From contig JBAZZV010000002.1 in the NCBI GenBank assembly GCA_041658645.1, forward strand, positions 107,907 to 171,906: DNA of 64,000 nucleotides, in the 5' to 3' direction. Of this stretch, positions 2,821-31,789 are shown one piece after another. Source of the DNA: Candidatus Margulisiibacteriota bacterium. Lineage in GTDB: Bacteria > Margulisbacteria > WOR-1 > O2-12-FULL-45-9 > XYB2-FULL-48-7. The position numbers and the translations under genes were made by a program. The notes beneath the pieces were generated by a model. It worked only from the letters and a program-made list of their open reading frames with translations. It ran no database searches and was not told the DNA's origin. Every line of letters begins with the position of its first letter. Position 1 is the stretch's first letter.

Positions 2821-5367
2821 CTAGCGGCGCGCGGGAAAGCTCTTCCCCACAAGTTTTAGACCTTCGAACCAGGCTAAACTGGCCGCCCCGCCAAACAAGG
2901 CAACCAACAGATCGTTCACATGCAGGACCTCAAAGTGAAAAAGGTCCCGCAGAACAGGGGTATAGAGGACGATCGCCAGCGCCGCCAGGGTCCCCCCCAT
3001 TACCCACCAGAGAGCGGTATTCCTATGCCGGACGATCGTGACGATGTTCTGCGTCCAGGAGAGGTTGGTCAGGATCAGCATCAGGTTGGCAAAGACCATT
3101 GTGGCAAAGGTCAGGCTCCGCGCCTCCGCTTCGCTCTTACCAAGATAAAGGGCCAGCAGGAAGATCACCATCACGACCGCCAGTACGCTCAAACCCTGTA
3201 ATAAGCTGATCAATAATGAAGCGCGGTCGAATAACCGGTCGTTCAGCGGGCGCGGCGGCCGCCGCATGGTCCCGCCCTCCTCCGGTTCGGCCTCAAAAAC
3301 GGTCGAACAGGCCGGATCAATGACCAGTTCGAGGAAAGCGATGTGGGCCGGCAGGAGGACGATCGGCAGGTGGAAAAGTATCGGGAAAAGGGAGAGCCCG
3401 GCGATCGGCACGTGGACAGCAAAGATATAGGCGACCGCTTTTTTCAGATTGTCATAGATCCGCCGCCCCATCCTGACCGCGGCCACGATCGAGAAAAAAT
3501 CATCATTGAGCAGGACGAGATCGGCCGACTCCCTGGCGACATCGGTCCCCCGCGCCCCCATGGCCACGCCGATCTGGGCCGATTTCAGGGCCGGGGCGTC
3601 GTTGACCCCGTCACCGGTCATCGCCACCACTTCATTATTCGCCTTCAAGGCGTTGATGATATTTAATTTCTGTTCCGGCACGACCCGGGCAAAGACATTG
3701 ACGGAATTGATGCGCGCCTGCAGTTCCAGCCGGTCCATCGCCATCAATTCCGGTCCGGTGATCACTTCATCAGAGTTTTTCAGTCCGATCTGCCGGGCGA
3801 TATATTTGGCGGTACCGGGATAGTCACCCGTGATCATGATCACCCGCAGGCCGGCCTCGTAACATTCCTTGACCGCCGGCGGCACCGTCTTCCTGATCGG
3901 GTCGGTAAAACCGATCAGGCCGATGAATTTAAAAGGAAAATCATGTTGCTGGGCCGGCAATTCCGTCCGTTCGAAAGCTCCCTCGGCCACCCCCAGCAAG
4001 CGCAGTCCTTTATCTGCCAATTCGGCAATGGTCCTGGCCAACGACTCTTTCTCCGCCGCGCTTAAATGGCAGAGGTCGGCGATCGCTTCCGGCGCTCCTT
4101 TGGCGGCGATGACATAATGCTGTTTGTCCGGCGACGCCCAAACATGCGACAGCGCCAACAGCTCCTTGGAGAGCGGGTATTCCCTGACCAGTTGCCAGGT
4201 CTGGTTAAGATGTTCGGTCCCGGTCAGCCAGTTCTCCGCGCAAGCCTTGATCTCTTTTTCGATCGGGTCAAAAGGGTCGCGCTGGCTGGCCAGGAGAGAG
4301 TATTCCATCAGGTTGTGAAATTGGTCCGGCAGTCGTTGCCCGGCGGCCGCCGAAAACAACTCGTTCCCGACGTAGAGCGTCCCCAGGGTCATCGTGTTCT
4401 GGGTCAAGGTCCCCGTCTTGTCGACGCAGAGGACGGTCGCCGCCCCCAGGGTCTCGATCGCCGGCATGCGGCGGGTCAGGACTTGATGTTTGGAAAGGCG
4501 CCACGCCCCCAGGGTCAGAAAGATCAGCAGGACGACGGAAAACTCTTCCGGCAGCATCGCCATGCTCAAGGTCAGACCGGCCAGGAAGCCATTGATCCAG
4601 CTCCCCCGGGTCAAGCCATAGACCACAATGACCAGGGCGCACAGGACCAGGCCGGCCAGGGCAAAAGACTTGATGATCTGGCCGGTCTCTTTTTGGAGCA
4701 GGGTTGATTCTTCCTGGATAGATTCGAGCGCCCGGCCGATCTTGCCGATCTCGGTCCCGGCGCTGGTGGAAAAAACCTGGCCGACCCCCCGCCCCTGCAC
4801 GACCATCGTCCCGGAATAAACAAAGGGGAGGCCCTCCCCGCCCGGTTGCTGCGAGCTGCTCCGGCCATCCCACTCGCTCTTGCCGACCGCCAGCGATTCA
4901 CCGGTCAGCAACGATTCGTCGAGCATCAAGTTACTATTAAATAGCAGCCGGGCATCGGCCGGAACGCGGTCCCCTTCGCGCAGCATGATAATGTCGCCGA
5001 CCACGACCTCGCGGCCCGGGATCCGGAGCTGTTCCCCATTGCGGATGACCAGCGCTCGGGGTGACGAAAGGTTACGCAACGCCTCCAGAGCCCGTTCAGT
5101 TTTTCTCTCCTGGTAAAAAGTTATCCCGATGACGACCACCACGAAGGAGAGGAGCATCAGGGCGTCCTTTAATTCGCCGAGGACGACATAGATCAAGCCG
5201 CTGCCGAGCAGCAGCAAGAGCATCGGTTCGCGGACGACATGCCAAAGGAGTTGCAGCGGATTGCGGCGTTTCTGCGAAGGGAGCTCGTTGTAGCCGTTTT
5301 TCTTCAGCCGGGCGTCAACTTCCGCCTTGGTCAGCCCGGTCAGAGCGTTCACTTCAGTTTCGTTCAT
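2821..5367 (-). CDS. P-type cation-transporting ATPase (type II, Ca2+/Mg2+-like)
   Basis: 848 aa; DKTGTLT phosphorylation motif, TGES, MTGDGVNDAPALK hinge motif. Confidence 0.85.
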   Translation of the reverse strand: MNETEVNALTGLTKAEVDARLKKNGYNELPSQKRRNPLQLLWHVVREPMLLLLLGSGLIYVVLGELKDALMLLSFVVVVIGITFYQERKTERALEALRNLSSPRALVIRNGEQLRIPGREVVVGDIIMLREGDRVPADARLLFNSNLMLDESLLTGESLAVGKSEWDGRSSSQQPGGEGLPFVYSGTMVVQGRGVGQVFSTSAGTEIGKIGRALESIQEESTLLQKETGQIIKSFALAGLVLCALVIVVYGLTRGSWINGFLAGLTLSMAMLPEEFSVVLLIFLTLGAWRLSKHQVLTRRMPAIETLGAATVLCVDKTGTLTQNTMTLGTLYVGNELFSAAAGQRLPDQFHNLMEYSLLASQRDPFDPIEKEIKACAENWLTGTEHLNQTWQLVREYPLSKELLALSHVWASPDKQHYVIAAKGAPEAIADLCHLSAAEKESLARTIAELADKGLRLLGVAEGAFERTELPAQQHDFPFKFIGLIGFTDPIRKTVPPAVKECYEAGLRVIMITGDYPGTAKYIARQIGLKNSDEVITGPELMAMDRLELQARINSVNVFARVVPEQKLNIINALKANNEVVAMTGDGVNDAPALKSAQIGVAMGARGTDVARESADLVLLNDDFFSIVAAVRMGRRIYDNLKKAVAYIFAVHVPIAGLSLFPILFHLPIVLLPAHIAFLELVIDPACSTVFEAEPEEGGTMRRPPRPLNDRLFDRASLLISLLQGLSVLAVVMVIFLLALYLGKSEAEARSLTFATMVFANLMLILTNLSWTQNIVTIVRHRNTALWWVMGGTLAALAIVLYTPVLRDLFHFEVLHVNDLLVALFGGAASLAWFEGLKLVGKSFPARR

Positions 5368-6476
5368 TCCGCCCCCACGCCAATGAACATCTTCCCCGGC
5401 AATTGCCGGACGATCTTCTTGAGCTCGAGCATCATCAAGATACTGGCCGCCTGCGGCGAGGAGACACCGACCTCAACGGCGATCGCGTCAATATGCTTCG
5501 GCTCATGAGATATAACCGCAAAGATCTTCTCTTCTTCCGGGCTTAAATTTTCCGGCTTGGATATTGTTGTTTGGGTTTTGGTATTTGTTTTGAGGTTGGA
5601 TGTTTGAAGTTGGAGGTTTAACTCATCCAAAACGTCCTCAACCGTTTCCACAAGTTTTGCCCCTTGCTTGATCAGCCAGTGCGGCCCTCTGGACCCCTCA
5701 AGGCCGACGTTCCCGGGGACGGCAAAGACTTCCCGTCCCTGCTCCAGCGCTTCCTTGGCCGTGATCATCGCCCCGCTCTTGTAATCACCTTCGACCACGA
5801 TGACCCCGAGCGAGAGGCCGGAGATGATCCGGTTCCGTCGGGGAAAATTACTCCGATCGCCCCGCTCACCCAACGGGAATTCCGAGACCAGGGCGCCGGA
5901 CATTTCTATCTGTTCAGCCAGGGACTTATTGTCCGCCGGAAAAACGACGTCAACCCCGGTCCCGAAAACAGCAATCGTCCTCCCGCCCGCCGCCACGACC
6001 GCTTGATGAGCGGCGGCATCGATCCCCTGGGCTAAACCGGAGACGACGACGATCCCGAGCGCCGCTAGTTCACTCGCCAGTTTCCTGGCCGTGGCCAGGC
6101 CGTAACGGGAGGCTCGCCTTGTCCCGACAATGGCAATAGATCTTTCGCTTGGTTGTAACATCTCGCCGCGATAATAAATGACTGGCGGCGGATCGTAGAT
6201 ATGCTTGAGGAGTTCAGGATAATCGTCGTCAGCCAGGGTCAGCACTTTAACTTGCGCCGCCTCGACTTTAGCCAATTCCGCGTCAAGATCGACTTTGTCC
6301 CGGTTAGCCAGAAAAGAACTGATCGCTCTGGGCCGGAGCCCCTCGATCCCGCTAAAGTCGGTCGCCTGCCAAACCTGCTCGATCGAGCCAAAATGTTTCC
6401 AGAGCCGCTTGATCGTCACCGGCCCAAGTTCGGGGATATTATTGAGGCCTAACCAGTATTTGAGTTCTCTAAGCAA
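5364..6476 (-). CDS. dprA: DNA processing protein DprA (contains in-frame heptamer-repeat insertion in C-terminal linker)
   Basis: Rossmann-like GIDAAAHQAVVAAGGRTIAVFGTG core typical of DprA/Smf; C-terminal winged-helix region. Confidence 0.8.
   Translation of the reverse strand: MLRELKYWLGLNNIPELGPVTIKRLWKHFGSIEQVWQATDFSGIEGLRPRAISSFLANRDKVDLDAELAKVEAAQVKVLTLADDDYPELLKHIYDPPPVIYYRGEMLQPSERSIAIVGTRRASRYGLATARKLASELAALGIVVVSGLAQGIDAAAHQAVVAAGGRTIAVFGTGVDVVFPADNKSLAEQIEMSGALVSEFPLGERGDRSNFPRRNRIISGLSLGVIVVEGDYKSGAMITAKEALEQGREVFAVPGNVGLEGSRGPHWLIKQGAKLVETVEDVLDELNLQLQTSNLKTNTKTQTTISKPENLSPEEEKIFAVISHEPKHIDAIAVEVGVSSPQAASILMMLELKKIVRQLPGKMFIGVGAE
5558..5620. repeat. G/T-rich heptanucleotide tandem array (STRR-like), in frame inside dprA
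   Basis: About 9 units with 7 nt periodicity (gttgttt gggtttt ggtattt gttttga ggttgga tgtttga agttgga ggttt); encodes LQLQTSNLKTNTKTQTTISKP. Confidence 0.5.
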
Positions 6477-12844: not shown

Positions 12845-14344
12845 CTACCAACGGCTCATCAGTAAACGGGCGTTATCGTTGCCGGGCAAAACCTGGCGGG
12901 TATCAACATCGACCAGCCAGTCAAAGGTCTCGAGCGCGCCGCCGCTCTGTTCACAAACATATTTGACGACAGACTTTTCACCCTTTTTACGGATCTGCCA
13001 ACCTTTGGCCACGACCGGCGTGCCGAGCGATTTGGTCAGAGCGACGACCGACTTGATGGCCGATTCGAGGCGGGTCCCCTTGCTGGTCTTCTGGCCCAGG
13101 ACAATCTTCAGCGAATCATCCGCGACCAGGGCCGAGACTGCTGTCCGGCCTTGTCCCCTGGCAACCGGCCCCGTGACGGCTGGCTTGACGGCCGTCCCCG
13201 CTATTCTCTCTCGCCCGAGGAAAGAGTGCAGAGCAACGCTCTCCGGATCGTTCTTCAGCCCTTCTTTCCAGGCGTCACGCGCTTCTTCCCTGAGACCAAG
13301 GGAGCGCAAACTTTCACCCAGCCTGACATAGGCCTGGGTCAGGTCCGGCCGCAGATCGACCGCCTGGCGGTAATTGGCCACCGCATCGTGGTAGCGGCGG
13401 AAGCGGAATGAATAGTTCCCCTGATCATAAAATTTCTGGGCAATGTCGTTAGCCGTTTTCCGGCTCTCCATATCCCGGTCATCGAGGCGGAGTGATTCTC
13501 CCAGCGCCTCGCCGGCAGCCGACAGGTTATTCTGGGCCAGGTAGGTCTTGGCCAGCCAGAGATGAGCTTTAGCCTGGCGGGCATCGACGTTAACCACGTT
13601 CTTGAAGTGTTTGACGGCGGCCGCGTAATTCTGGCCGTTGTAGGCCTGGCAGCCGAGCCGGAAAAGATCTTCGGTCGGCTCTTTGACGTTGGCCGAGGAG
13701 ACCCAGCCTTCCTTACCGTCGTCAAAGACGACCTTATACCACAGCATCTTGGAGAGCGCGGTCAGGACCTGTCCCTGGTAAAGGACCCGTCGTGAGTCGC
13801 TGGAGACCGCCGAGCAGGTGGCAACCACGGTCAGCGGCCAGCCAGCATTGTCAAAAGCTTCTCCCTGGGAAACATTACTTGCCTTTGATGCGGTCGCTGA
13901 CGGCCGTTCCACGAAAAACTCGACCGTCCGCTGGATGGCACCGCGTTCACCAGCGATCTGATAGCGCACCACGTGGACACCCGCGCCAACCCTGGCCGGC
14001 AGCTTATAGGCACTGCTCCAAGCGACGCCATCCTTGCTGGAAAGCTCGATCCGCTCCGAGCTAAAATCAAAGAGCGCCTTGACCGATTTGACCTGGTTGG
14101 CCGTCCTGACGCCGAGCGAAATGACCCGTTCTTCCCTAACCGTCTTGGGATAGACCAGCGCTTCGACCCAAACCAGCGAGAGCCCCTCACCCGGCTGGGT
14201 CGGACCCGCCTTGAGGCTCATGTTCTCCCGGTCAATTACCGCATCGGCCGCCCAGACCCTGCCTGCCGGCAGGCAGGCGAATCCGGCCAGCAACATGATA
14301 ACCGCCGGCAAAACTAAGCTTCTTTTCATTTTTTTCCTCCTCAT
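12845..14344 (-). CDS. Secreted TPR-repeat protein
   Basis: 499 aa; signal peptide; several TPR-like AxxYxxA/LG repeats in the C-terminal half. Confidence 0.5.
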   Translation of the reverse strand: MRRKKMKRSLVLPAVIMLLAGFACLPAGRVWAADAVIDRENMSLKAGPTQPGEGLSLVWVEALVYPKTVREERVISLGVRTANQVKSVKALFDFSSERIELSSKDGVAWSSAYKLPARVGAGVHVVRYQIAGERGAIQRTVEFFVERPSATASKASNVSQGEAFDNAGWPLTVVATCSAVSSDSRRVLYQGQVLTALSKMLWYKVVFDDGKEGWVSSANVKEPTEDLFRLGCQAYNGQNYAAAVKHFKNVVNVDARQAKAHLWLAKTYLAQNNLSAAGEALGESLRLDDRDMESRKTANDIAQKFYDQGNYSFRFRRYHDAVANYRQAVDLRPDLTQAYVRLGESLRSLGLREEARDAWKEGLKNDPESVALHSFLGRERIAGTAVKPAVTGPVARGQGRTAVSALVADDSLKIVLGQKTSKGTRLESAIKSVVALTKSLGTPVVAKGWQIRKKGEKSVVKYVCEQSGGALETFDWLVDVDTRQVLPGNDNARLLMSRW

Positions 14345-15852: not shown

Positions 15853-16025
15853 GAACACTCAGCATCTATCGTGACAGGCGACTCAAACCCCTCTTGAAAT
15901 AAGTGTATCACGAAGGATAACCCTGTTTCAAGGTGGTTTGAAATGGCTTTAAAGCAGTTTGATTGTGTTTGTTAAAAGATTGTTTGAAGGATATTAAGAA
16001 ATTAATAATTATGCTTGAATAGGGC

Positions 16026-16793
16026 CTAACGGCCCATCTCTCTTTCGAAGCAAGCATCGCAGGGCGAGTCTTGTTTTTCCGCTTTGTCTTCTTTCATAAT
16101 GGCATACTTTGTGCCACATCTAGGGCATTCCAAGACAGTTGCCTTCTGATGACAAAAATAACAATCAGCCTCATCTACCTTACTATCCAGATTAACTAAA
16201 ATTGTTTCATTCAAACAATATGGGCATTCAAGCTCTGTATAGGATGAGCCTTCTTTCCCATAGGGCGTATCGTCCCCCATTCTCGACTTAGCTTTTTTGT
16301 CTCTTTCCTCATAAGAAAACACTAACTCTTCGATTTTCTTCCAGTCCGCATCGCTAACCTGGTCTTCTATTTCCACGCCCAGTTTCTCGCTTGAAAACAC
16401 ACAGATATAATTCAACGCCTTCCCCAATATCCACTCGGCATCTTCCTTGCTTAGATGCACCTCATAATGTTGTATGTTATTTCTTTCGATTCTCAGGAAT
16501 TTCAATTGATCTGCTTTGTCGTCATCTGTTAAATCGCATTCCCTCAAACGATTAAGTAGCTCTTTATAATCTACTGTGTGCGAGCCCGTGTGCACCGGTT
16601 TCTTATCCGTATAAATTAATTCCGGACTTATTCTACGAAGAGATTCCTTAAGGAGGAGCTCGACCCCCTGATAAACACTAAGGATGGCTTGCTTATAGTC
16701 AGATTCCGCGAAATGCTTAACGCCATGATTAATTGAGTCAACGCCATTCTCAAACAAATTAAGTTTTAACATACTTAGCAACCTATCAGACAA
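16026..16793 (-). CDS. Hypothetical protein with two C-terminal Zn-ribbons (CPYC..CYFC, CPRC..CDAC) and a possible HEPN-like Rx4H (RNNIQH)
   Basis: 255 aa; four CxxC pairs; AT-rich island gene. Confidence 0.4.
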   Translation of the reverse strand: MSDRLLSMLKLNLFENGVDSINHGVKHFAESDYKQAILSVYQGVELLLKESLRRISPELIYTDKKPVHTGSHTVDYKELLNRLRECDLTDDDKADQLKFLRIERNNIQHYEVHLSKEDAEWILGKALNYICVFSSEKLGVEIEDQVSDADWKKIEELVFSYEERDKKAKSRMGDDTPYGKEGSSYTELECPYCLNETILVNLDSKVDEADCYFCHQKATVLECPRCGTKYAIMKEDKAEKQDSPCDACFEREMGR

Positions 16794-16821
16794 TATTTTT
16801 GAGCGCTAAACCATACCTATT

Positions 16822-17037
16822 TTAATAAATCCTTTTTGCACCTTTTTTACCTGTATATGGATTAACATTCCCCTTTGTTGGCCAATTATCAATCTTAGTT
16901 CTATTTGGGAATGTCTTATAATGAGGAGCAATATAAGTCCCGCTCTTTTTAATATGCCCGCTAACACGGACACTTTTTGCAAATGAAGTAAAAGCCAAAA
17001 GAGAACAAATCAAAGCCATTAATACAAGCTTTTTCAT
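16822..17037 (-). CDS. Small secreted protein
   Basis: 71 aa; signal peptide followed by a basic Gly/Lys-rich mature peptide (NPYTGKKG). Confidence 0.35.
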   Translation of the reverse strand: MKKLVLMALICSLLAFTSFAKSVRVSGHIKKSGTYIAPHYKTFPNRTKIDNWPTKGNVNPYTGKKGAKRIY

Positions 17038-17051
17038 TCTATGTCTTCCTC

Positions 17052-17357
17052 CTATTTATTCGGGGCTATGGGCTTTATTATAAACAGAGATACAAAGAAT
17101 ATGACCACTGATATGAAATCAATAATAACCCATAACTCTTTATCTAAATATATTGGAAATATAGGATTAAACAATATAGCGAGAAGAGCAAACATCCAAA
17201 CAAAAACCCTCTTTTGTTGTTCATAAGATAAATAAGTATTATAAGCCGATGCTCCACAAATAAACCACCTTAAAAGGATATAATATCCGTATGGCATGCC
17301 TACCGGGACTGCAACTAATAACATAATTATAGCTAATATTGGCACTAAATAGTTCAT
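17052..17357 (-). CDS. Small integral membrane protein
   Basis: 101 aa, 3 predicted TM helices. Confidence 0.35.
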   Translation of the reverse strand: MNYLVPILAIIMLLVAVPVGMPYGYYILLRWFICGASAYNTYLSYEQQKRVFVWMFALLAILFNPIFPIYLDKELWVIIDFISVVIFFVSLFIIKPIAPNK

Positions 17358-17372
17358 TGGTCCCCTCCTTAC

Positions 17373-18218
17373 CTACTTGTTCCCCTCATTGCGAGACCCG
17401 CTATTGTTGGAAACCTTATTTAAAAGATAAATAAATATTCCAGACATAGCTATTCCACCCCACAAAGCTATGTCTTGTCTGTAAGAATGATAGTTCTCAT
17501 CGCTATAATAACCCCAATCATTAGGAAGAAAGAATAGCACTCGCTCAAGTCCAAACATAAACAATATAGTTAAGCCAATCCCGCATCCAACGATCAAAGC
17601 ATACTCGTTTAGATATTTGATTCCAAATAAAGGAATGCTAACCAGATCCCTCCCAACTAATTTATAAAATATATAAAGAATTGTCGACAAAAACAAATAA
17701 GCAACGAGAAGGACTAAATAGGTTCCAAGACATAACGACCCAAATAAGGTCTCTTTCCATAACATTAATGTAATAATAGGAATAGCAAGCAATACGAGTA
17801 TGGCAACCACTTCAAGTCTTTCTGATGCATTTTTGCCCATAATATATTTATCCATGAACCAAAAACACCAAAGAACGACGAAGAAGATAATATAACTAAT
17901 AGATACGGCCAATAAACCAATCGAAATAGCTAAGTCAGGGATTACGAAGACAAGGACAAGAAATACAACTGAGAGCGTAGTTCCCAATAATTTAAATAAC
18001 GGTATTTTCCAGTTTTCCACCCTTCCGCCCCAGGGCCACTGCCACAGCAACATATTAAAATATGGGAGGAAAGAGATTGCAGCAAGATTCTTATAAAAGC
18101 TCCCTTCAGTATAAGCCGCGACAACGCTACCCCCAAGCCCACCAACAAAAAATACAATTACTACAACCGATCGAATCAGTTCTTCAATATGGGAGATTAA
18201 GCTATTTTTGCTATTCAC
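17373..18218 (-). CDS. Integral membrane protein
   Basis: 281 aa, 7-8 TM helices, low GC. Confidence 0.4.
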   Translation of the reverse strand: MNSKNSLISHIEELIRSVVVIVFFVGGLGGSVVAAYTEGSFYKNLAAISFLPYFNMLLWQWPWGGRVENWKIPLFKLLGTTLSVVFLVLVFVIPDLAISIGLLAVSISYIIFFVVLWCFWFMDKYIMGKNASERLEVVAILVLLAIPIITLMLWKETLFGSLCLGTYLVLLVAYLFLSTILYIFYKLVGRDLVSIPLFGIKYLNEYALIVGCGIGLTILFMFGLERVLFFLPNDWGYYSDENYHSYRQDIALWGGIAMSGIFIYLLNKVSNNSGSRNEGNK

Positions 18219-18363
18219 TTATGGTTCCCCCTTCATGCACAAAAATGGCCCTATGCTACATAAATTATATGCCACTCTTGATAGGATTATACTATTCTAG
18301 TAATTCATACGCTACCTACCGATCTCGATAGGCATACTATGCGGATGGGCCATTCAAAATAAA

Positions 18364-18378
18364 TTGTTAGAAAACAGA
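18364..18378. promoter_or_regulatory. 15 nt motif TTGTTAGAAAACAGA, copy 1 (second copy 19691-19705)
   Basis: Exact 15-mer repeated in two intergenic regions of the island. Confidence 0.3.
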
Positions 18379-18487
18379 AATAAAAGAAGAAATGCCTTGA
18401 ATTTTCATTGCTCCATATCTATAATTCCAACATACTTGTTTTTGAAGAATTGGGAAAATGAATATTTATACAAAGGGAGTCTGAGAA

Positions 18488-18751
18488 ATGTTTTACAGTC
18501 TACACATATCATTTGGCGATGGGCATAAAGGGACATCAATAATCCTGCCCGATAAAGAAGTAGAGAGGATAAATGAACTCAGGCGAATTGCTAAAGAGAT
18601 CGAAATCCTCAGCGAAACGGGCTGGAAACATACTGAACCAATCGAACAAATACATATAAACGAGAATCAAACTCGTTGGGAAGTCATTCCAATAAGCCCC
18701 AATGAACTATCAATACTTAAAAAGAAAGTCGGAATAATCCTGAGTTCCTAG
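18488..18751 (+). CDS. Hypothetical small protein
   Basis: 87 aa ORF; only plus-strand ORF in the island. Confidence 0.3.
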   Translation: MFYSLHISFGDGHKGTSIILPDKEVERINELRRIAKEIEILSETGWKHTEPIEQIHINENQTRWEVIPISPNELSILKKKVGIILSS

Positions 18752-18769
18752 CATTCCCCCGATTGAGTG

Positions 18770-19489
18770 CTACCAAGTTGTATTATATAGGGATATTTTT
18801 ATAGTGTTATCTTCAAGTTGATTAAATGATGATATGCCATATTTAATTTTCAATTTTTTATTCTGATCGTCCGCGTCTGCGTATGCATCATAAGTCCAAT
18901 AAAACCAATTGGCAATATAAACTAATGCCCAAGTTCCGCTCGAATTATTAGTGCTGGTGCCGTAATAATTATAGGATTTTGCAGTCATCCCACTGTATGA
19001 AGCAATAGCAATAACCCAAGATCCTATTGCTTTCGGCCAATTCCCATTGACAACTTGACCACCCCCAATAATCAGAAAAGAAAGTAGCGCGGATATCCCC
19101 GGGTCTTTCTTTTCTGAGCTATATAAACTTAAATTTGACAACATTCTGTCGGAACTGCCCGAATAATATTGATTAGTTGATGGGGAATAGTTCTCATCAT
19201 CAACCATTATTGTCGTTAGCTCTCCGGATTTAATTACGACTAGCTTTTCATATTTGGTCTTCAGTGATTTTGTTTCAACAGCCCTAATTGAATGGGACCC
19301 AGCAACAACTTCTTCGAGAAAAAGAGGGGTTTCTCCTGACTTTTCTTCATCTACAAACACGTAGCATGCTGGCCCCTTAGATAACACCTTTAATTGCCCA
19401 TATTGCATATCCAGTGCTAAAGCTGCGCCTGAAAAGATTATATTTAAAGCTAATATTATAAGGACAAAAAGACAAATTGTTTTTTTCAT
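18770..19489 (-). CDS. Secreted/membrane hypothetical protein (start set at MKKTICLF signal peptide)
   Basis: Signal peptide, beta-rich N-domain, two C-terminal TM segments. Confidence 0.4.
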   Translation of the reverse strand: MKKTICLFVLIILALNIIFSGAALALDMQYGQLKVLSKGPACYVFVDEEKSGETPLFLEEVVAGSHSIRAVETKSLKTKYEKLVVIKSGELTTIMVDDENYSPSTNQYYSGSSDRMLSNLSLYSSEKKDPGISALLSFLIIGGGQVVNGNWPKAIGSWVIAIASYSGMTAKSYNYYGTSTNNSSGTWALVYIANWFYWTYDAYADADDQNKKLKIKYGISSFNQLEDNTIKISLYNTTW

Positions 19490-19690
19490 ATTGGCACCTC
19501 CTAATAAATACCACCAACTCACTCAACTACATCCTGATTATACTTCAATAGAAAGCCTGGTCAAGTTTATTATTTATCCTCTTTCTCCCCATCCTTTGCC
19601 ACGCATTTTTGCCCTTACGTTTTCCCTGTCTCTGTTTAAACCAACAAGCTTTCCCCAGCAAACAACTATTCTAAATTAATTGTTAGAAGA

Positions 19691-19705
19691 TTGTTAGAAA
19701 ACAGA
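19691..19705. promoter_or_regulatory. 15 nt motif TTGTTAGAAAACAGA, copy 2, preceded by a partial repeat
   Basis: Identical to 18364-18378. Confidence 0.3.
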
Positions 19706-20208
19706 CAAGTGAGAGAATCAACGAAAAGACACAAGCCGTTAATTTTCCCTTGTTAATACGTTTAACACTCGATCCTTCGGGCATTAGTCAGAAGTGTGGC
19801 TTATCGCTGCAGAGGTCCTTGACAACTAAATATAGAGGTCAACTATTTTATCGAAATCTTTTTTGGAGAGGGATTTTTGCATATTTATTTTAACCTTTCG
19901 TTTCCCGCTCTCAAATATTAATGGAAAAACAAAAGGACAATTTTTGCTAACCATACGATACTCTATGTATAAATCAAAAAGGAATTTGATTATCTCTGCA
20001 ATATTGAACACAAACATTATGGTTTGCCATTCAGGGCAACCACCCATCCCCGGCATAATCCCCGCCCTGCCGTGAACGGCAACTATTCTTACTTTCTTTT
20101 TAGAAACAGGTTTTTCTTGAATGGCCTTCTTGTCAATGCTTTTTATTATTTTTTGACATCGAAGGGGTTATCCCCGGGAATAGTAAGTTTAATAACCTTC
20201 TTTTTCAT

Positions 20209-20412
20209 TTAAATGTTTTTATCACGAAAGGAATAGAAGAGAATACCCAAAATAATTGTAAATGGTAAAAATACAATAAATAAAAACATAAGGAGTTTTA
20301 TTAATAGGCCCTCTAACGAATAAACGTTTGAATTCCATAGTCCAAATAAAATAAAAAAGAATGAAGATGAAATACCTAATATCCACAATATAACCGTTTG
20401 CTTTTTATTCAT
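20209..20412 (-). CDS. Small membrane protein
   Basis: 67 aa, two TM helices. Confidence 0.3.
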   Translation of the reverse strand: MNKKQTVILWILGISSSFFFILFGLWNSNVYSLEGLLIKLLMFLFIVFLPFTIILGILFYSFRDKNI

Positions 20413-20547
20413 ATTATGCCATCCCTATTTCAAAAGTTCTTCAATCCGAACCCTAAGTACTTTAGCGATAATCTGAATGGTTGACAAATTGAATTATACA
20501 CCCAAACAATAGTAATGCATAATAAAAGAAACTGGCCCAAAGGGATT

Positions 20548-20632
20548 TCCCCGACGGACATTAATATATAAATAATAGAAACGTCGGGATCCCGCCGTTC
20601 CACTATATCAAAATATATTAATGAGGGCGGGA
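20548..20632. repeat. Double-hairpin repeat element, copy C; right boundary of island, inserted in the T-loop of a partial tRNA-Asp duplicate
   Basis: Flanks ctgtcCcgcaggagaccgagggGTTC | element | AATccctttgggcc match tRNA-Asp from anticodon loop to acceptor 3' strand. Confidence 0.65.
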
Positions 20633-20735
20633 GAACCCCTCGGTCTCCTGCGGGACAGAACATACGAGAAGAAACTAAACTTGTTCTCCGTAGCCACGAG
20701 TCCCGACGAATAGTCGGGACGAGGGCGAAGGAGAA

Positions 20736-20811
20736 CGGGCCCGAAGGGATTTGAACCCTCGGTCTCCTGCGTGACAGGCAGGCGCGTTAAACCAGACTAC
20801 GCTACGGGCCC
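20736..20811 (-). tRNA. tRNA-Asp (anticodon GTC)
   Basis: GGGCCCG acceptor, anticodon loop CTGTCAC, T-loop TTCAAAT. Confidence 0.85.
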
Positions 20812-20939
20812 GCGCGAACCTCAACTTATAACCGATAACCGATAACTAATAACTTAGAAACTGTCACTTTATCAATTATCATTCAAAAAATTATTATACC
20901 AGCTAAAGGGGATGTTGGAAAGGTGTATTATGTAACTTT

Positions 20940-21284
20940 TTAAATTGAATTGATCAGCCCCAGGAGCATCTTCGAGATCTCTTCAAACACGGCATACAAT
21001 TCCTTTTGTTGCAGTTCGTTGATCACTTTATCATCAGATAACAAGTCGATGATCGCGACTACCTCGTAGGTTGACCCGCGCGCGATAGTAAAGAAGTTTT
21101 TCTTATCGGCGCTTGACGATTTGCCGGTTCCTTCGGCTATATTGAGAACTATGCTTAGCGCTGCCCTTTTAAGCTGATCAAAAAGGGCTTTATCGACGTG
21201 GTGGCTGTTGGCCAAAAGAGCGAATAGAAGCTTCCGTGCTTCCTTGGCCTTCTGATAAACCTTCAGTTTTTCAAAATCAAACAT
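20940..21284 (-). CDS. Four-helix-bundle protein (23S rRNA intervening-sequence / TIGR02436-like family)
   Basis: 114 aa; VLNIAEGTGKSS...FFTIARGSTYE motifs characteristic of the IVS-encoded four-helix bundle family. Confidence 0.65.
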   Translation of the reverse strand: MFDFEKLKVYQKAKEARKLLFALLANSHHVDKALFDQLKRAALSIVLNIAEGTGKSSSADKKNFFTIARGSTYEVVAIIDLLSDDKVINELQQKELYAVFEEISKMLLGLINSI

Positions 21285-21377
21285 AATAAATAGTACTTAG
21301 TGTGAGTGTGCGTCTTGAGTCTTGAGCGTCGTCCGCTAACTACTAACTACTCACACTCACTCTCAAGACTTAATAAA

Positions 21378-21463
21378 CGGAGGGGGAGAGATTCGAACTC
21401 TCGCTACCTTACGGTACTAACGGTTTAGCAAACCGTCCCCTTGAACCACTTGGGTACCCCTCC
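21378..21463 (-). tRNA. tRNA-Ser (anticodon GCT)
   Basis: Long variable arm; GGAGGGG acceptor; anticodon loop TTGCTAA. Confidence 0.85.
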
Positions 21464-21524
21464 ATGCTCGCTATCGCTCGAAATCCTAAATCCTAAATTC
21501 TAAATCCGAAATATAAGGTCGAAA

Positions 21525-21611
21525 CGGAGGGAGGAGGATTTGAACCTCCGATACCCTTGCGGGCATACTAGTTTTCAAGACTAGCGCCATCAGCCGCTCG
21601 GCCATCCCTCC
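21525..21611 (-). tRNA. tRNA-Ser (anticodon TGA)
   Basis: Long variable arm; GGAGGGA acceptor; anticodon loop CTTGAAA. Confidence 0.85.
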
Positions 21612-21716
21612 TCGCTCAACGAACGCTCACATTAACAATTTAGTTTATTTTTTGCAAGCTTCACTTATTATAAGTTGTGTTAGCTTGCTTTTCAAGCCCG
21701 CCTTAGGAATAATCGC

Positions 21717-21746
21717 TTGACTGCCGCGCAAGGACGCAGGTATAAT
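21717..21746 (+). promoter_or_regulatory. Sigma70-like promoter upstream of the LexA-methyltransferase gene (TTGACT-N18-TATAAT)
   Basis: Near-consensus -35 and -10 hexamers about 50 nt upstream of the start. Confidence 0.45.
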
Positions 21747-21797
21747 TAGGTCAATCGAAAATGAATCGAAAGTCAAGCGAAGGTAAGTGAAGGTCAA

Positions 21798-23252
21798 ATG
21801 ATCACCAAGAGGCAAAAACAGACCCTGGACTTTATAAAAAACCATCAACTTAGGAGAGGGTATGCCCCTTCCCTTGAGGAGATCAAGGATCATCTTAAAC
21901 TTTCTTCCGTATCAACGGCACATCATCATGTTAAAGCATTGGAAGCGCTTGGATTGCTAAAAAAAAAGGAAAACCAGCCACGCGCAATTAGTCTTTATGA
22001 TAATGAACAGTTAATTAGTATGCCTTTGCTTGGAACCATTGCCGCCGGTGAACCCATTGAAGCTATTCAGGAAAAAGAAATAATTGCCATTCCCAAATCA
22101 AAATTAACTCAAAATGGTGAGTTTTACGCGCTACGTGTTTCTGGCAATAGCATGACAGATGAAAACATTAATGATGGCGATATCATTATAGTAAAAAGCC
22201 AGTCAACGGCCAATAATGGGGAAAAAGTTGTTGCCTTAATAGACAATCAAGCAGTAACCCTAAAAAAGCTGTACAAAGAAAACAAAAACATTCGACTTCA
22301 ACCAGCTAACTCAACTATGCCCCCAATGATATTCTCCCCACAAAGGGTAAATATTCAAGGAGTCGTTGTTGAGATCGTTAAGTCCGATAAACATTCGTCG
22401 CCAGGCATGAGATATTCACCTGAAAACAATTTAGCTGCTCCCCAACATCAAAGTATTAACAATTTCCTGAACAGAGTACTTCAAGGCGATTGCCTTGAAG
22501 TAATGAAAACCATGCCTCCGAAATCAATAAATATGGTTCTGTGTGATCTCCCTTATGGAAACACCCAAAACAAATGGGACAGCATTATCCCCCTTGATAA
22601 ACTATGGACTGAATATGAAAGAATAATTAAAGATAATGGTGTTATAGTTCTTACCTCACAAGGGTTGTTTACCGCCCAATTAATCCTATCCAATCCAAGG
22701 TTATTTAAGTATAAGATTATTTGGGTAAAATCTAAGCCAACTAATTTCCTTAATGCAAAGAAACAACCGCTTCGGAGGCACGAGGATATATGCATATTTT
22801 ACAAAAACCAACCCGATTATAATCCGCAAATGACTCCCGGAGAGCCTTATAACAAGGGGTTCAGGAAAAATCAGCTGACAGGCTGTTATGGGGATTTTAA
22901 GCCTGTTAAAGTTAAAAGTGATGGCCAGCGGTATCCCACAGATGTTGTTTATTTCAAAACGGCAGAGAGTGAAGGCGTTGTTCACCATCCTACTCAAAAA
23001 CCAGTCGAGCTAGGCAGATACCTAATTAAAACATTTACAAAACCAGGAGACATTATCCTCGACAATACTTGCGGCAGTGGGAGTTTTCTTGTTTCAGCCG
23101 TTCTTGAGGATCGATTGTTTATTGGTATCGAAAAAAATGAGGAAGTATTTTTGCACAAAAAGCATCATATTGACTATATTGAAATCTGCAACAAAAGAAT
23201 TAAAGAAGCAAAAAGGAAGGCCGCTGTCGAAAACAGCAGATTGTTCGCCTAA
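21798..23252 (+). CDS. Fusion protein: full-length LexA repressor (wHTH + S24 peptidase) fused to beta-class N6-adenine/N4-cytosine DNA methyltransferase
   Basis: N-terminus has the LexA cleavage site AAGEP, catalytic SGNSM and TLKKL; C-terminus has GDCLEVMKTMPPKSINMVLCDLPYG (CcrM-like DPPY region), HPTQKP and DNTCGSGS (FxGxG). Confidence 0.75.
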   Translation: MITKRQKQTLDFIKNHQLRRGYAPSLEEIKDHLKLSSVSTAHHHVKALEALGLLKKKENQPRAISLYDNEQLISMPLLGTIAAGEPIEAIQEKEIIAIPKSKLTQNGEFYALRVSGNSMTDENINDGDIIIVKSQSTANNGEKVVALIDNQAVTLKKLYKENKNIRLQPANSTMPPMIFSPQRVNIQGVVVEIVKSDKHSSPGMRYSPENNLAAPQHQSINNFLNRVLQGDCLEVMKTMPPKSINMVLCDLPYGNTQNKWDSIIPLDKLWTEYERIIKDNGVIVLTSQGLFTAQLILSNPRLFKYKIIWVKSKPTNFLNAKKQPLRRHEDICIFYKNQPDYNPQMTPGEPYNKGFRKNQLTGCYGDFKPVKVKSDGQRYPTDVVYFKTAESEGVVHHPTQKPVELGRYLIKTFTKPGDIILDNTCGSGSFLVSAVLEDRLFIGIEKNEEVFLHKKHHIDYIEICNKRIKEAKRKAAVENSRLFA

Positions 23253-24172
23253 ATACCCGTGTAAGGTTCTTTTTTCAGTATTTGGGCAGCCCTTTCTAAT
23301 TCTTTGTCTGTTATTAAACCTTCCTCTTTAAACCATTCTAAAAGATGAAAATATTGATTTGAGCTTAAAATCGGCTTAATTTCATTAGTTATATTTGCTT
23401 TTTTCTTAATATATTCCAAGTGTTTATTGTTCAATATGCCTCGACCAATCAAGTCGTAGGTAATACGTATCGCATCAACTGAAGTGAGATTCAAATCCCC
23501 TTTTCGAGCTATATCAGCATTGACATCAGATTGGTCTATTTTGAGCAACTCATCTAAGCTTTGTAAGCCATTCAAATTTTTATTATAAAATTCAATATCA
23601 TGCTTTTGATAAGTAAACCACGTCTTGCCTTGTTCGGTTAATGAGCCTCTAGGTAAATACACGCCTTCTCGTTTAACCCTTTCTTTCGAAACCCAACCAC
23701 ATATATATAATATCCATTTTTGTCTTTTTGTCCCAGGTAGTTTTCTTGTTTTTTTACTAGGGGTTTTAAGGTGTGTCATTAAGTATATATCTACATCTAA
23801 TCGATCATCGTTCATTTGCCTTGGCCAAAAATTATGTTTTGCTTCTCTTGGAATATCATCGTTGCTTAAATATTCCTCTTTAAATGGCAGCGTGCCGCCT
23901 CTGCATTTAACATCAACCTTGATTCCGGTTGGAAGCAGAAAATCATAACCTAAAGAAGGCCGATTGCTTGGATTAATTTCAGGCATTCCTAAATATTTCC
24001 GTACAACTATTTCCGCCAAAGCACCAAACCCCTGCTGTTCTTCACTCCCTCTTTCTGCTCCGGTTGTATTCGGATTAGCGGAAACGAACTGAAATGCCTT
24101 TTGGCGCAAATCAAACCCAGCAGAATCAATCAGTTTGATGGGGATTGGTTTTGGTTTGCTGTATTGATACAT
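23249..24172 (-). CDS. Putative restriction endonuclease-like PD-(D/E)xK nuclease, convergent with and overlapping the methyltransferase gene by 4 nt
   Basis: 307 aa; SLGYDFLLPTGIKVDVKC fits D-x(n)-D-x-K; low GC; no other similarity visible by eye. Confidence 0.35.
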   Translation of the reverse strand: MYQYSKPKPIPIKLIDSAGFDLRQKAFQFVSANPNTTGAERGSEEQQGFGALAEIVVRKYLGMPEINPSNRPSLGYDFLLPTGIKVDVKCRGGTLPFKEEYLSNDDIPREAKHNFWPRQMNDDRLDVDIYLMTHLKTPSKKTRKLPGTKRQKWILYICGWVSKERVKREGVYLPRGSLTEQGKTWFTYQKHDIEFYNKNLNGLQSLDELLKIDQSDVNADIARKGDLNLTSVDAIRITYDLIGRGILNNKHLEYIKKKANITNEIKPILSSNQYFHLLEWFKEEGLITDKELERAAQILKKEPYTGI

Positions 24173-27710: not shown

Positions 27711-29038
27711 CCGCCTCGCTCTACGTCCACATCCCCTTTTGCAAACAAAAGTGCAACTACTGTGATTTCGTTTCTTATGCCGGGAAGGAAAATTTCATTG
27801 ACGAGTATGTTGAGACGATGATCCGAGAATTCGAGTCCCGGTGTTCTGTGCTCTATGTTCCGTGTTCTACTGTCTTCTTCGGCGGCGGGACCCCGACCCT
27901 GCTCGAACCAAAGCATTTCGATAAAATATTATCCACATTCATTAGTCATTCGTCATTAGTCATTAGTCATTCAGAGATCTCCATCGAAGCTAATCCAGGA
28001 ACTGCCGGCAAAGCCAAGCTAAAAGCCCTTAGACAACTCGGTATCAACCGTCTCTCGATCGGCGTCCAGTCGTTCAACGACCGGCAGCTAAAGACCCTGG
28101 GGCGGATCCATGACTCCGCCACAGCTAAACGTTTTTATCAGGACGCGCGTGACGCCGGCTTCGACAATATTAATCTCGATCTGATCTTCGCCCTGCCCGG
28201 GCAGACCTTAGCTGAATGGAAACGCGATCTGGCCACGGCGATCGCGCTAAAACCAGAACATCTTTCAACTTATAATTTACAAATTGAAGAGGGAACACCT
28301 TTCTGGGAAAGGTTCAAAGAGCCCTCACCCGCTGCCGCAAACCGACGCACCCTCTCCCAGAGGGAGAGGGTAATGAGCCAAGCAGACTTGCAAAACACCT
28401 TCTCCCCCCCTCACCCGCTTACGCAAAGTGTCCCCCCTCTCCCAGAGGGAGAGGGTACTTCGCCTTTAATTCCCGTTTGCGCAACACCTTCTCCCTTTGG
28501 GAGAAGGTGCGCCTCCTTGGCGCATTGGATGAGGGGAGAGAAGGTGCATAGTTCTGGTAGAGCGGATGAGGGCCTCAGTCTCCCTTCCGAAGATGAAGAG
28601 CTGGCAATGTATGAATATGCCATCGAAGAACTGGCCGCTCACGGCTACAAACATTATGAGATCTCTAATTTTGCTAAACCGGGTTATGAATGTCAGCACA
28701 ATTTGGTTTACTGGCGGAACGAGAATTATCTCGGCATTGGCGCCGGCGCGCACTCCCATGTAAACGGCCAGCGCTGGTCTAATCCAAACTGTATCGAAAA
28801 ATACCTGGAAACCGCGACGTTTAGTCGCAGGTTTCCAGGTTCGACTGCCGACCAACGCGAAACGATCTTCCTCGGCCTCCGCCTCCTGGACGGTTTGTCA
28901 ATTAAGAAATTTAAAGGCTTTGAGGCTCAAGTCGCTGAACTGATAAAAGACGGCTTGTTAACCGAGGAAAAGGGGAATTATAAACTAACCCGGCAAGGTC
29001 TATATCTGGGCAATCTGGTCTTCGAGAAGTTCGTATAA
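27707..29038 (+). CDS. hemW: Radical SAM heme chaperone HemW (HemN-like), carrying an approximately 84 aa in-frame insertion
   Basis: [10 protein letters not shown] (CxxxCxxC); GGGTPT; C-terminal HemN domain; start ATG overlaps lepA stop (ATGA). Confidence 0.8.
27936..27974. repeat. Heptanucleotide tandem repeat CATT(A/C)GT, about 5.5 copies, inside the hemW coding region
   Basis: cattcattagtcattcgtcattagtcattagtcattcag; encodes [13 protein letters not shown]. Confidence 0.5.
28321..28573. mobile_element. MITE-like hairpin repeat element (TIR GCCCTCACC/GGTGAGGGC-like), copy 1, inserted in frame within hemW
   Basis: Contains two CCCTCTCCC-AGA-GGGAGAGGG perfect hairpins plus CACCTTCTCCC-TTT-GGGAGAAGGTG; ends gccctcaccc ... 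tggtagagcggatgagggc; homologous to the 49391-49521 copy. Confidence 0.55.
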
Positions 29039-30395: not shown

Positions 30396-30882
30396 AGAGT
30401 TGGAAGAAATTAAGCCGGAACTGCCGCCAGAAAAAAGCGAGCTCGAGCTGATGAAGGAGCAGGTAGCCGAGGGGAAGAATAGGATGCTCCGGGCAATGGC
30501 CGATCTTGATAACTTCAAGAAGCGCTCTTTGCTCGAGCGGGAACAGTTCGTTCAGTTCGCCAACGAAACGCTGATCAGCGACACCCTCCCCGTCCTCGAC
30601 GGCTTTAGCCGGGCGCTCGACGCGGCCGCCAAGATGAAGGCCGGGGAAGAGCTGACCAAAGGGCTTGCCCTGATCAAACGCCAGCTCGAGGACGTCTTAA
30701 CCAAACACGGGGTCAAAGTGATCGAAGCGGTCGGCAAAGTTTACGACCCAAATTTACACGAAGCAATTTTACAGAAAGAGCACCACGGCCCGGAGAATGT
30801 TATCATTGAAGAGATGCAAAAAGGTTACACCTTGCACGGGCGGGTTATCCGGCCGTCTATGGTGATCGTCAGCAAGAAATGA
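30388..30882 (+). CDS. grpE: Nucleotide exchange factor GrpE
   Basis: 164 aa; coiled-coil N-terminus; RAMADLDNFKKR...GYTLHGRVIRPSMV. Confidence 0.85.
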   Translation: MTEELEEIKPELPPEKSELELMKEQVAEGKNRMLRAMADLDNFKKRSLLEREQFVQFANETLISDTLPVLDGFSRALDAAAKMKAGEELTKGLALIKRQLEDVLTKHGVKVIEAVGKVYDPNLHEAILQKEHHGPENVIIEEMQKGYTLHGRVIRPSMVIVSKK

Positions 30883-30986
30883 CAAATGTCCAATGTCGCG
30901 TTGAATGTCAAATGTCCAATGACAAATGTCAAATGAAGGTGTCGCCTGCGGCGACATTATTCTAATCGGAAATCAACAACAAGCTT

Positions 30987-31298: not shown

Positions 31299-31654
31299 TG
31301 CAAATTCAGGATAGAGCACTGGAATTTGCGGTCAGGATAATAAAGTTTGCTGATAAGTTACCGAAATCGGCAGCGGGGGCGGTTTTGGTTAAGCAATTGA
31401 TCCGTTCCGGGACATCGATTGGGGCGAATATGGAAGAAGCGGATGGCGCTTCGTCGAAAGCCGATTTTATTAATAAAGTAACGATTGCTAGGAAAGAAGC
31501 AAGGGAAACGCATTATTGGCTACAGCTAATTAAGAAGGCGGAATTGATACATAAAGATAATATTGTTGAATTGGATAGTTTAATTAATGAGGCGGAAGAA
31601 TTGAAGCGTGTTCTTAGCGCAATCATTAACAAAGCAAGAGAAAAGAAACAATGA
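31298..31654 (+). CDS. Four-helix-bundle protein (23S rRNA IVS-encoded protein family)
   Basis: 118 aa; GTSIGANMEEADGASSKADFINKVTIARKEARETHYWLQL matches the family signature. Confidence 0.7.
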   Translation: MQIQDRALEFAVRIIKFADKLPKSAAGAVLVKQLIRSGTSIGANMEEADGASSKADFINKVTIARKEARETHYWLQLIKKAELIHKDNIVELDSLINEAEELKRVLSAIINKAREKKQ

Positions 31655-31789
31655 CAAATGACCAATTAAAAATGACAAATGAAGGTATGCCTTCGGCATA
31701 TCATTTTAATAACGTCGCGCAGCGACACATCAATTTGACATTTGTCATTGGACATTTGACATTAATAAAGGATAAGGGGGAGTAAAGAA

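Follow-up and report, generated by a model that had tools for sequence, protein, structure and literature searches.

The 64,000-nt stretch of a Candidatus Margulisiibacteriota genome analysed here (the window) carries a heptamer-based repeat element inside dprA, the gene for DNA-processing protein DprA, and a second copy inside thiL, the gene for thiamine-phosphate kinase. The DprA and ThiL proteins of the window have 100% matches in a Candidatus Margulisiibacteriota metagenome-assembled genome, the DprA match being named in NCBI as "DNA-processing protein DprA" of a Candidatus Margulisiibacteriota bacterium, and their close homologues all come from Margulisbacteria, Saganbacteria or WOR-1. 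Margulisbacteria are a little-known, non-photosynthetic sister phylum of Cyanobacteria. The features concerned, in the coordinates of the window, are these:

5364–6476, minus strand: dprA, 370 aa, host of the element (open reading frame (ORF), Pfam and the 100% NCBI protein match)
5592–5619, minus strand: head of the element, four heptamers that read AAACCTC CAACTTC AAACATC CAACCTC on the coding strand and match the fourfold MAACNTC of the aligned copies
5557–5591, minus strand: tail of the element, degenerate heptamers AAAACAA ATACCAA AACCCAA ACAACAA TATCCAA (alignment of the copies and a tail-only hidden Markov model (HMM))
52675–53643, minus strand: thiL, 322 aa (Pfam AIRS and AIRS_C, NCBI name)
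53467–53529, minus strand: second composite copy, in the thiL loop that follows GIGDDAAA (alignment and HMM)

On the plus strand, positions 5557–5619 read TTGGATA TTGTTGT TTGGGTT TTGGTAT TTGTTTT GAGGTTG GATGTTT GAAGTTG GAGGTTT, that is, nine units of 7 nt, or 63 nt and 21 codons. The minus strand reads as the head followed directly by the tail, and is translated in frame as NLQLQTSNLKTNTKTQTTISK. A sequence-only reading of this DNA had placed an in-frame array here, of a length divisible by 21, that encodes ...ELNLQLQTSNLKTNTKTQTTISKPEN... in the inter-domain linker of DprA and has unit types recurring in thiL. All of this holds, except that the coordinates given for the array (5558–5620) were one base off. 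The same reading called the 7-nt periodicity strict; it is real and significant, yet degenerate. Self-identity is 0.61 at lag 7 and 0.65 at lag 14, compared with 0.39 ± 0.06 in shuffled sequences (n = 20,000; p ~5e-4), and the background at lag 7 for 56-nt windows across the whole stretch is 0.256 ± 0.069, with only about 10 loci reaching 0.6, most of them intergenic. No two adjacent units are identical. Given these modest lag identities, and given that Tandem Repeats Finder (TRF) scores only the last four units (5589–5619, period 14, 2.2 copies of a 14-mer), "strict" is not an appropriate description. An assembly artefact is an unlikely origin for the array, since five contigs from several public sources encode the identical DprA protein.

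Alignment of related copies shows that the dprA stretch is a composite element and not the plain tandem array originally described. The architecture is fixed across the aligned copies: four MAACNTC units precede a tail that is conserved but hardly periodic, AAAACAAATCCAAAATC(A/C)CAAA..., with the conserved core AAAACAAATnCCAAAAyC, and this design of four head units plus ~35 nt is seen in every copy. The family consensus on the A/C-rich strand is AAACTTC CAACTTC AAACTTC AAACATC followed by AAAACAAATCCAAAATCCCAAA..., for an element length of ~60–64 nt. The thiL copy reads AAACTTC AAACATC CAACTTC AAACATC AAAACAAATCCAAAATCACAAAACAAAAACTACAA, is translated as KLQTSNFKHQNKSKITKQKLQ, and is identical to the dprA copy at 46 of 63 positions in register, including a common 16-mer, GATGTTTGAAGTTGGA.

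We sampled ~250 kb of Margulisbacteria and Saganbacteria DNA from about a dozen genomes, with a bias to dprA and thiL loci, and identified 14 copies of the composite type, spread over at least five genes: dprA (seven genomes), thiL (four genomes), an lplA-like gene (one), a bioA-like gene (one) and a flgA/flgH junction, whose inverted pair is counted once. An nhmmer search with an HMM of the element recovered 11 copies in 204 kb of this DNA (four in dprA, three in thiL, the lplA-like and bioA-like copies, and both members of the inverted pair). The later copies at loci L209, L210 and L211 are weak nhmmer matches (E = 0.003, 5e-5 and 0.05, respectively) that were read by eye, and the copy at L212 comes from pairwise DNA alignment only, outside the HMM search. 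The lplA-like copy lies at 20794–20849 of L082 (ELQTSNIKLQNKSKSPNQKSRTS), and the copy in the bioA-like aminotransferase gene is at L102, from a Saganbacterium (KLPTSNLKLQNKSKITNFKSKTK). In thiL of L210, four perfect CAAATTC units precede the same tail. The thiL copy of the window and the bioA-like copy of L102 differ in both gene and genome, and are 90% identical over 50 nt, including 22 consecutive bases of the tail. More generally, the matrix of identities between copies is star-like (0.64–0.90), with no grouping by gene or by genome. The inverted pair (L092, 5734–5869) consists of two composite copies ~20 nt apart that fold with −35.6 kcal/mol (z = −5.3); its G/T-rich arm would, in the FlgH ORF as annotated, code for part of the hydrophobic N-terminus.

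The two parts of the element have different distributions. Searching species-representative genomes for four xAACxTC units gave at least 120 loci in many phyla; the matches listed include Bacteroidota, Acidobacteriota, Verrucomicrobiota and Chloroflexota, together with two cyanobacteria and two Saganbacteria. The listed arrays (L086–L205) are mostly homogeneous, and ~90% of them lie outside long ORFs. The tail-only HMM matches only Margulisbacteria and Saganbacteria loci, the two listed Saganbacteria loci among them; in the 118 listed loci from other phyla that were chosen for a four-unit head, it found no convincing match (best E = 0.63). Hence, heptamer heads are cosmopolitan among the matches listed, and all head-plus-tail composites seen so far come from Margulisbacteria and Saganbacteria. 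A scan of viral contigs for head plus tail gave no match. We also noted that the ~10% of listed xAACxTC arrays within long ORFs are in the sense orientation, and that some arrays are inverted around a GC hairpin (e.g., L107).

All genic copies of the element are in the A/C-rich sense orientation. On the A/C-rich strand, the consensus lacks stop codons in every frame; on the opposite strand, each of the three frames contains a stop. With a single stop-free strand, the element can therefore persist in genes in one orientation only, in any frame. Two frames are in fact used: frame 0 in thiL, the bioA-like and lplA-like genes and the N-terminus of flgH (KLQTSNFKHQNKSKI), and frame 1 in dprA (LQTSNLKTNTKTQ). 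In dprA, between the window and L082, third-position identity is 0.76 in the element and 0.47 in the rest of the gene, a value matched or exceeded by 9 of 312 other 21-codon windows, and amino acid identity is 0.57 and 0.64, respectively. Between the window and L209, third-position identity is 0.67 in the element and 0.35 elsewhere, matched or exceeded by none of the 312 other windows, and amino acid identity is 0.33 and 0.62. Taken with the reading of the element in two frames, the high third-position identity speaks against peptide-level selection. These comparisons favour maintenance at the level of DNA or RNA, or repeated homogenisation to the family consensus, as the probable cause of conservation.

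What does the element contribute to DprA? Pfam assigns residues 71–277 to DNA_processg_A and 307–362 to DprA_WH, and the element, head and tail together, codes for residues 287–307. The peptide is thus the linker that joins the Rossmann-type and winged-helix domains, as the sequence-only reading had it. Among the relatives in the Protein Data Bank (3UQZ and 3MAJ), the alignment with Streptococcus pneumoniae DprA (3UQZ) ends at residue 287, immediately ahead of the element. An AlphaFold2 model built with 32 orthologues has a mean predicted local distance difference test (pLDDT) score of 88.6, and residues 290–305 are its only stretch below 50. The ThiL model falls below 50 only at residues 28–39 and 41–56, which correspond to the element, and at residues 197–203, a second heptamer site described below. 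Given its hydrophilic residues and the disorder predicted for it in DprA and ThiL alike, the peptide most likely serves DprA as a flexible, passive spacer in a variable inter-domain linker.

The element was described earlier as inserted in dprA, which is misleading. DprA orthologues are nearly all 360–375 aa long with linkers of similar length, and the linkers of 17 genes from other phyla (among the matches listed, 40–49% identical) are 9–33 aa long, with a median of 23, compared with 24 in the window. The linkers of other phyla being equally long, the element adds no length to DprA, and we reject a recent, length-adding insertion. The element architecture is shared by orthologues at 83% (L083, L212), 65% (L082) and 55–58% (L207) protein identity, and the array is equally long in the window, L083 and L082. 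On these alignments, the dprA element is old and vertically inherited, and occupies a pre-existing linker. Its peptide is recognizable in distant orthologues, as QLQTSN[LF]KT in P0005 and P0006. Formally, this is an outcome that the sequence-only reading had named as refuting its claim; however, what is conserved is the DNA rather than the peptide. In other lineages, the same site of DprA is occupied by unrelated peptides of other heptamer families, e.g., MTNDQLPMTNEG. A further observation concerns L212, the closest dprA relative, in which a 30-nt in-frame insert, read as SAGGGSAFGG, lies between head units 1 and 2; it consists of two tandem 15-nt hairpins, TCCGCCGGAGGCGGA TCCGCCTTTGGCGGA, and the remainder of the element is ~90% identical to the window copy.

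At thiL, the element differs in presence. The closest thiL relative (L085, protein P0122; 78–83% identical) has only AAAACCCGAAC at the site, a difference of 51 nt. The element is likewise absent from P0134, P0201 and P0227, and is present in many distant orthologues. As judged from the aligned orthologues, the thiL site is a genuine filled/empty polymorphism, which could reflect a gain or a loss.

The peptides found in the variable loops of DprA and ThiL equal the three-frame read-through of heptamer arrays: LQTSNFK corresponds to three units of CTTCAAA, QIPNSKF to three of CAAATTC, FKIQNSK to three of TTCAAAA and ALRVTRY to three of GCGTTAC, and MTNDQLPMTNEG corresponds to repeated TGACCAA units followed by TGAAGG. 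These equivalences were deduced from protein alignments and verified at the DNA level for L084 (four TGACCAA units and TGAAGG), L210 (four CAAATTC units) and L209. The GCGTTAC units at a second thiL site of the window agree with this pattern too. In the window, the AATGACA/TGACCAA unit with a AATGAAGG end is intergenic only, at 30878–30941 and 31650–31685, each time followed by a GC hairpin.

We give a probability of about 60% to the following reading: the element is a dispersed repeat similar to the short tandemly repeated repetitive (STRR) sequences of cyanobacteria, is compatible with coding, and is maintained at the DNA level, its peptide being a passive spacer. Copies would have arisen by some DNA-level copy-and-paste or conversion process, and the peptide would have no specific function. 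The element would be tolerated where a protein can accommodate ~21 hydrophilic, disordered residues rich in K, Q, T, S, N and P, and occupation of the dprA site would predate the split between orthologues whose identity is now ~60%. Inside a gene, such an array would be "frame-locked": a slip of one or two units puts the codons beyond it out of frame and would be purged, which would account for a head that stays at four units in nearly all copies. The head units may still be homogenised, e.g., by contraction and expansion in steps of 21 nt (three units) or by conversion. Such steps would explain perfect heads that differ by lineage (four CAAATTC units in L210 and four TGACCAA units in L084, with AAACTTC-type units in the window).

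Several observations weigh against this reading. Four of the five host genes share one frame, which lends weak support to a peptide-level role (p ~0.14, our own estimate). Chance identity between copies is already ~0.46, given a composition of ~60% A and ~30% C, such that the excess of third-position identity is real but smaller than it appears; low complexity inflates all identity figures, and could by itself yield the star-like matrix. We saw no terminal inverted repeats, target-site duplications or mobilisation machinery in the flanks of the aligned copies. Outside the targeted genes, ~180 kb of flanking DNA contains only one extra copy (lplA, L082), so that the family may be small, with most of its members ancient and fixed in place and not actively mobile. 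A protein-level search with a 70-aa concatenate of the peptides gave a single match, to an LplA-like fragment, because low complexity defeats HMMER scoring.

Could the copies have arisen separately, by slippage within each gene, with the likeness among dprA, thiL, bioA and lplA reflecting no more than convergence on A/C-rich sequence? The window is rich in heptamer arrays of diverse unit types, xAACxTC arrays occur in many phyla among the matches listed, heads are homogenised within arrays in a lineage-specific manner (L210, L084), as slippage predicts, and low complexity inflates similarity. However, slippage accounts for the heads and not for the shared tail: the non-repetitive stretch AAAACAAATCCAAAATCACAAA is identical over 22 nt between thiL of the window and bioA of L102, the tail-only HMM matches the Margulisbacteria and Saganbacteria copies and gives no convincing match (best E = 0.63) in the 118 head-bearing loci of other phyla, and all copies share the fixed design of four head units plus ~35 nt. 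We consider purely local slippage unlikely. It is quite unlikely, too, that the peptide is what is selected, with LQTSNFK/QNKSKI a functional linear motif or a protein-selected linker and the DNA periodicity a by-product. Retention of the peptide in orthologues at 55–65% identity, the frame common to thiL, bioA, lplA and the flgH N-terminus, and the general presence of a flexible linker of about this length in DprA all fit a peptide module, but dprA uses another frame of the same DNA, other lineages have unrelated heptamer-family peptides such as MTNDQLPMTNEG at the same DprA site, some thiL orthologues are free of the insert, and the segments are predicted to be disordered. Moreover, amino acid identity within the array (0.33–0.57) is at or below the gene average and third positions are more conserved than elsewhere, which is the opposite of what protein-level selection produces.

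Two further alternatives assign the element a function as nucleic acid or as a switch. Its A/C-rich, unstructured tail could be an RNA or DNA site, of the Csp/S1/Hfq type or of an uptake or recombination type, that is embedded in coding sequence and kept by selection. Nucleotide conservation that is independent of frame and host gene is consistent with such a signal, as are the sense RNA of the element, which is fully unstructured (minimum free energy (MFE) 0 kcal/mol, no hairpin), and the strong fold of the intergenic inverted pair; binding of proteins has been proposed for TAACTGA heptamers, with CspB contacting one heptamer per protein (MacGregor 2015, PMC4679880). We regard a selected signal as improbable, since copies are sparse (two in the 64-kb window; about one per 15–20 kb across the sampled loci), their placement with respect to the start or end of a gene follows no pattern, we identified no candidate binder, and thiL of close relatives works without the element. 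Finally, dprA, a competence gene, might be switched on and off as a contingency locus by frameshifting slippage: 7 is not a multiple of three, so a change of one unit shifts the frame, and tandem repeats drive phase variation in other bacteria (PMC4692102, PMC4679880). Against this, degenerate units with 61% lag-7 identity suppress slippage, the array is of constant length in the window, L083 and L082, and the members of the 90% identity clusters have the same array at the same length (the second member of each cluster differs only in its start residue, and adds nothing). The element also occurs in the housekeeping gene thiL, and the dprA array is two-thirds of the way into the gene rather than near its start. 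We reject phase variation, which is extremely improbable on the strength of the degenerate units, the constant length in relatives and the identical cluster members.

The preferred reading, that of a repeat maintained as DNA, leaves room for a bolder claim, which we put forward only tentatively because we think it less likely to be right than wrong: the element may represent a new class of mini-element of Margulisbacteria and Saganbacteria, a heptamer-based composite of ~63 nt without stops in any of the three frames. Copying or homogenisation at the DNA level would place it in loops of essential proteins, and it would be held close to a phylum-wide consensus whatever the reading frame. If true, this would imply either a templated copy mechanism or a nucleic-acid function embedded in coding sequence. 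If true, and together with the nested 21-nt palindromic inserts described below, it would also mean that the repeat biology of STRRs and small dispersed repeats (SDRs) extends from Cyanobacteria to their sister phylum, and would point to a common origin.

Many other heptamer arrays are present in the window. A second site within thiL has the following features:

53008–53066, minus strand: thiL site 2, GCGTTAC heptamers read in frame as YALRVTEA and split by a 21-nt palindromic mini-insert
53037–53057, minus strand: the mini-insert, TCTGCCTGCCGGCAGGCACGG, read as CLPAGT, cleanly absent from L085

The mini-insert has the core GCCTGCCGGCAGGC and was found at four sites: 53037–53057 and ~14250–14275 of the window (both on the minus strand), ~960–980 of L211 and 10859–10872 of L210. 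The inserts are always in frame within genes and add seven residues (CLPAGT, CLPAGR, ACRQAGG); in L211, the insert breaks up the dprA element. In L082, in-frame GTTACGC heptamers occur at 19874–19917 in the gene for glycine dehydrogenase subunit 2. They belong to the unit family of thiL site 2 in the window; thus, entry into coding sequence is not confined to one heptamer family.

The best period-7 array of the window is intergenic (TCATTAG, 4.7 copies, 27939–27971; 92% matches, TRF score 59). Intergenic AATGACA/AATGTCA arrays at 30878–30941, 31650–31685 and 31733–31763 end in AAATGAAGG and are followed by a GC-rich, terminator-like hairpin, and an array in the inverse orientation lies directly upstream of dnaK (start 31790). 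In other Margulisbacteria (L084), this unit and ending make up the DprA linker, MTNDQLPMTNEG. Arrays at 20813–20869, 21312–21351 and 21475–21524 (ATAACCG/ATAACTA, GTCTTGA, CTAACTA and AAATCCT units) adjoin or separate tRNA genes at 20736–20811, 21378–21463 and 21525–21611, all on the minus strand; their ATAACTn units resemble the TAACTGA repeat of Beggiatoaceae and cyanobacteria. This region falls within a low-GC island (16001–24000; GC 0.37–0.41, compared with ~0.55–0.60 elsewhere) of short ORFs, tRNA genes and several heptamer arrays that may have been acquired horizontally. Weak 7-nt periodicity was also seen in the C-terminal tail of DnaK (33596–33643) and in ThiC just ahead of the CSMCG motif (57979–58023; EHGARNTGQ, GGAACAC-type units), and these segments may be decayed arrays or chance. 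An Rfam search of the whole window returned seven tRNAs only, with no match at the arrays.

What is the wider significance of such repeats? For annotation, LQTSNFK, QIPNSKF, MTNDKxxMTNEG and CLPAGR are best treated as repeat-derived peptides and not as protein motifs. Repeats within genes also bring a built-in ruler, in that filled and empty sites, reading frames and codon positions record their age, their turnover and the level at which selection acts. Our data suggest that heptamer arrays can turn into permanent protein linkers that are frame-locked yet unit-homogenised, that a defined head-plus-tail element is kept at the nucleotide level whatever the frame, and that heptamer-array biology is common to Cyanobacteria and their sister phylum. 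STRRs were reportedly described by Mazel and colleagues in 1990, and the origin and spread of short dispersed repeats have been an open question since then. We found no paper in a literature search that ties Margulisbacteria to tandem or dispersed repeats.

How does the element compare with known systems? The likeness to STRRs drawn in the sequence-only reading stands in part. Both are short tandem 7-nt arrays at many dispersed loci, with several unit families per genome, and the host phylum is the sister of Cyanobacteria. However, the host lies outside Cyanobacteria, arrays of the xAACxTC type are spread over many phyla, and whereas STRRs are described as largely intergenic and homogeneous, the element is composite and lies, in dprA and in most other copies, in frame inside coding sequences of housekeeping genes. 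Its MAACNTC units also appear to be unlike the STRR units (CCCCAGT, TTGGTCA and CAACAGT). The linker of L084, with its four TGACCAA units, is the reverse complement of TTGGTCA, presumably the unit of STRR2. In PMC4692102, Mazel et al. (1990) are cited for three tandemly repetitive heptanucleotides of Calothrix PCC 7601.

TAACTGA direct repeats occur in marine Beggiatoaceae, some Cyanobacteria and Bacteroidetes, as sets of 2–6 copies at many loci; within ORFs, they are found in the stop-free orientation only, encoding the 7-aa periodic peptide LSVISYQ, and horizontal or mobile spread is suspected, by a mechanism that is not known (MacGregor 2015, PMC4679880). They resemble the element in being heptamers at many loci whose in-ORF copies follow the same stop-codon logic. 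In contrast, TAACTGA sets lie mostly just upstream of start codons, with ORF cases in hypothetical proteins or at protein ends, and lack a conserved tail, whereas the element lies in internal loops of conserved enzymes and is conserved across the phylum. The GGGNATC and GGGGA(C/T)T heptamers of Xanthomonas and Nostoc, about one third of which are intragenic in Nostoc (Rehm et al. 2015, PMC4692102), are likewise dispersed and share the marked preference for four units, but they are G-rich and form G-quadruplexes; the element has no three-tetrad G-quadruplex runs, and its sense strand is unstructured.

For residence in genes, the nearest parallel may be the Rickettsia palindromic elements (RPEs), which Ogata and colleagues reportedly described in 2000 as selfish repeats residing in frame within protein-coding genes. 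PMC1779305 and PMC10969869 both mention RPEs. The two families are alike as translation-compatible, dispersed repeats in unrelated housekeeping genes that supply a peptide segment at fold-neutral sites: stop-free, related copies of the element occur in dprA, thiL, the lplA-like and bioA-like genes and at the N-terminus or upstream of flgH, and they fall in segments predicted to be disordered (pLDDT below 50 in DprA and at both ThiL sites) with the fold intact. Filled and empty sites are found for thiL (empty in L085/P0122, P0134, P0201 and P0227), while dprA linkers are nearly all of similar length. Unlike RPEs, which are 100–150 bp long and palindromic, the element is ~63 nt long, non-palindromic, as the MFE of its sense strand indicates, and heptamer-based, with no sign of recent proliferation. 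The SDRs of Nostoc punctiforme, 21–27 nt long, reportedly have no obvious transposase according to Elhai and colleagues (2008). The 21-nt palindromic mini-inserts look similar to them in size and hairpin form, a likeness that applies to these nested inserts only and not to the heptamer element. PMC3116915 cites the study of Elhai et al. (2008).

On the features tested, the element falls outside STRRs sensu stricto (host, location and probably units), contingency loci (no identical adjacent units, and no variation in unit number among the window, L083 and L082), RPEs (no palindrome) and miniature inverted-repeat transposable elements (no terminal inverted repeats or target-site duplication in the aligned copies and flanks). 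By analogy, it appears closest in kind to cyanobacterial STRRs, TAACTGA repeats and four-unit GGGNATC heptamers, and to RPEs for its in-frame lifestyle.

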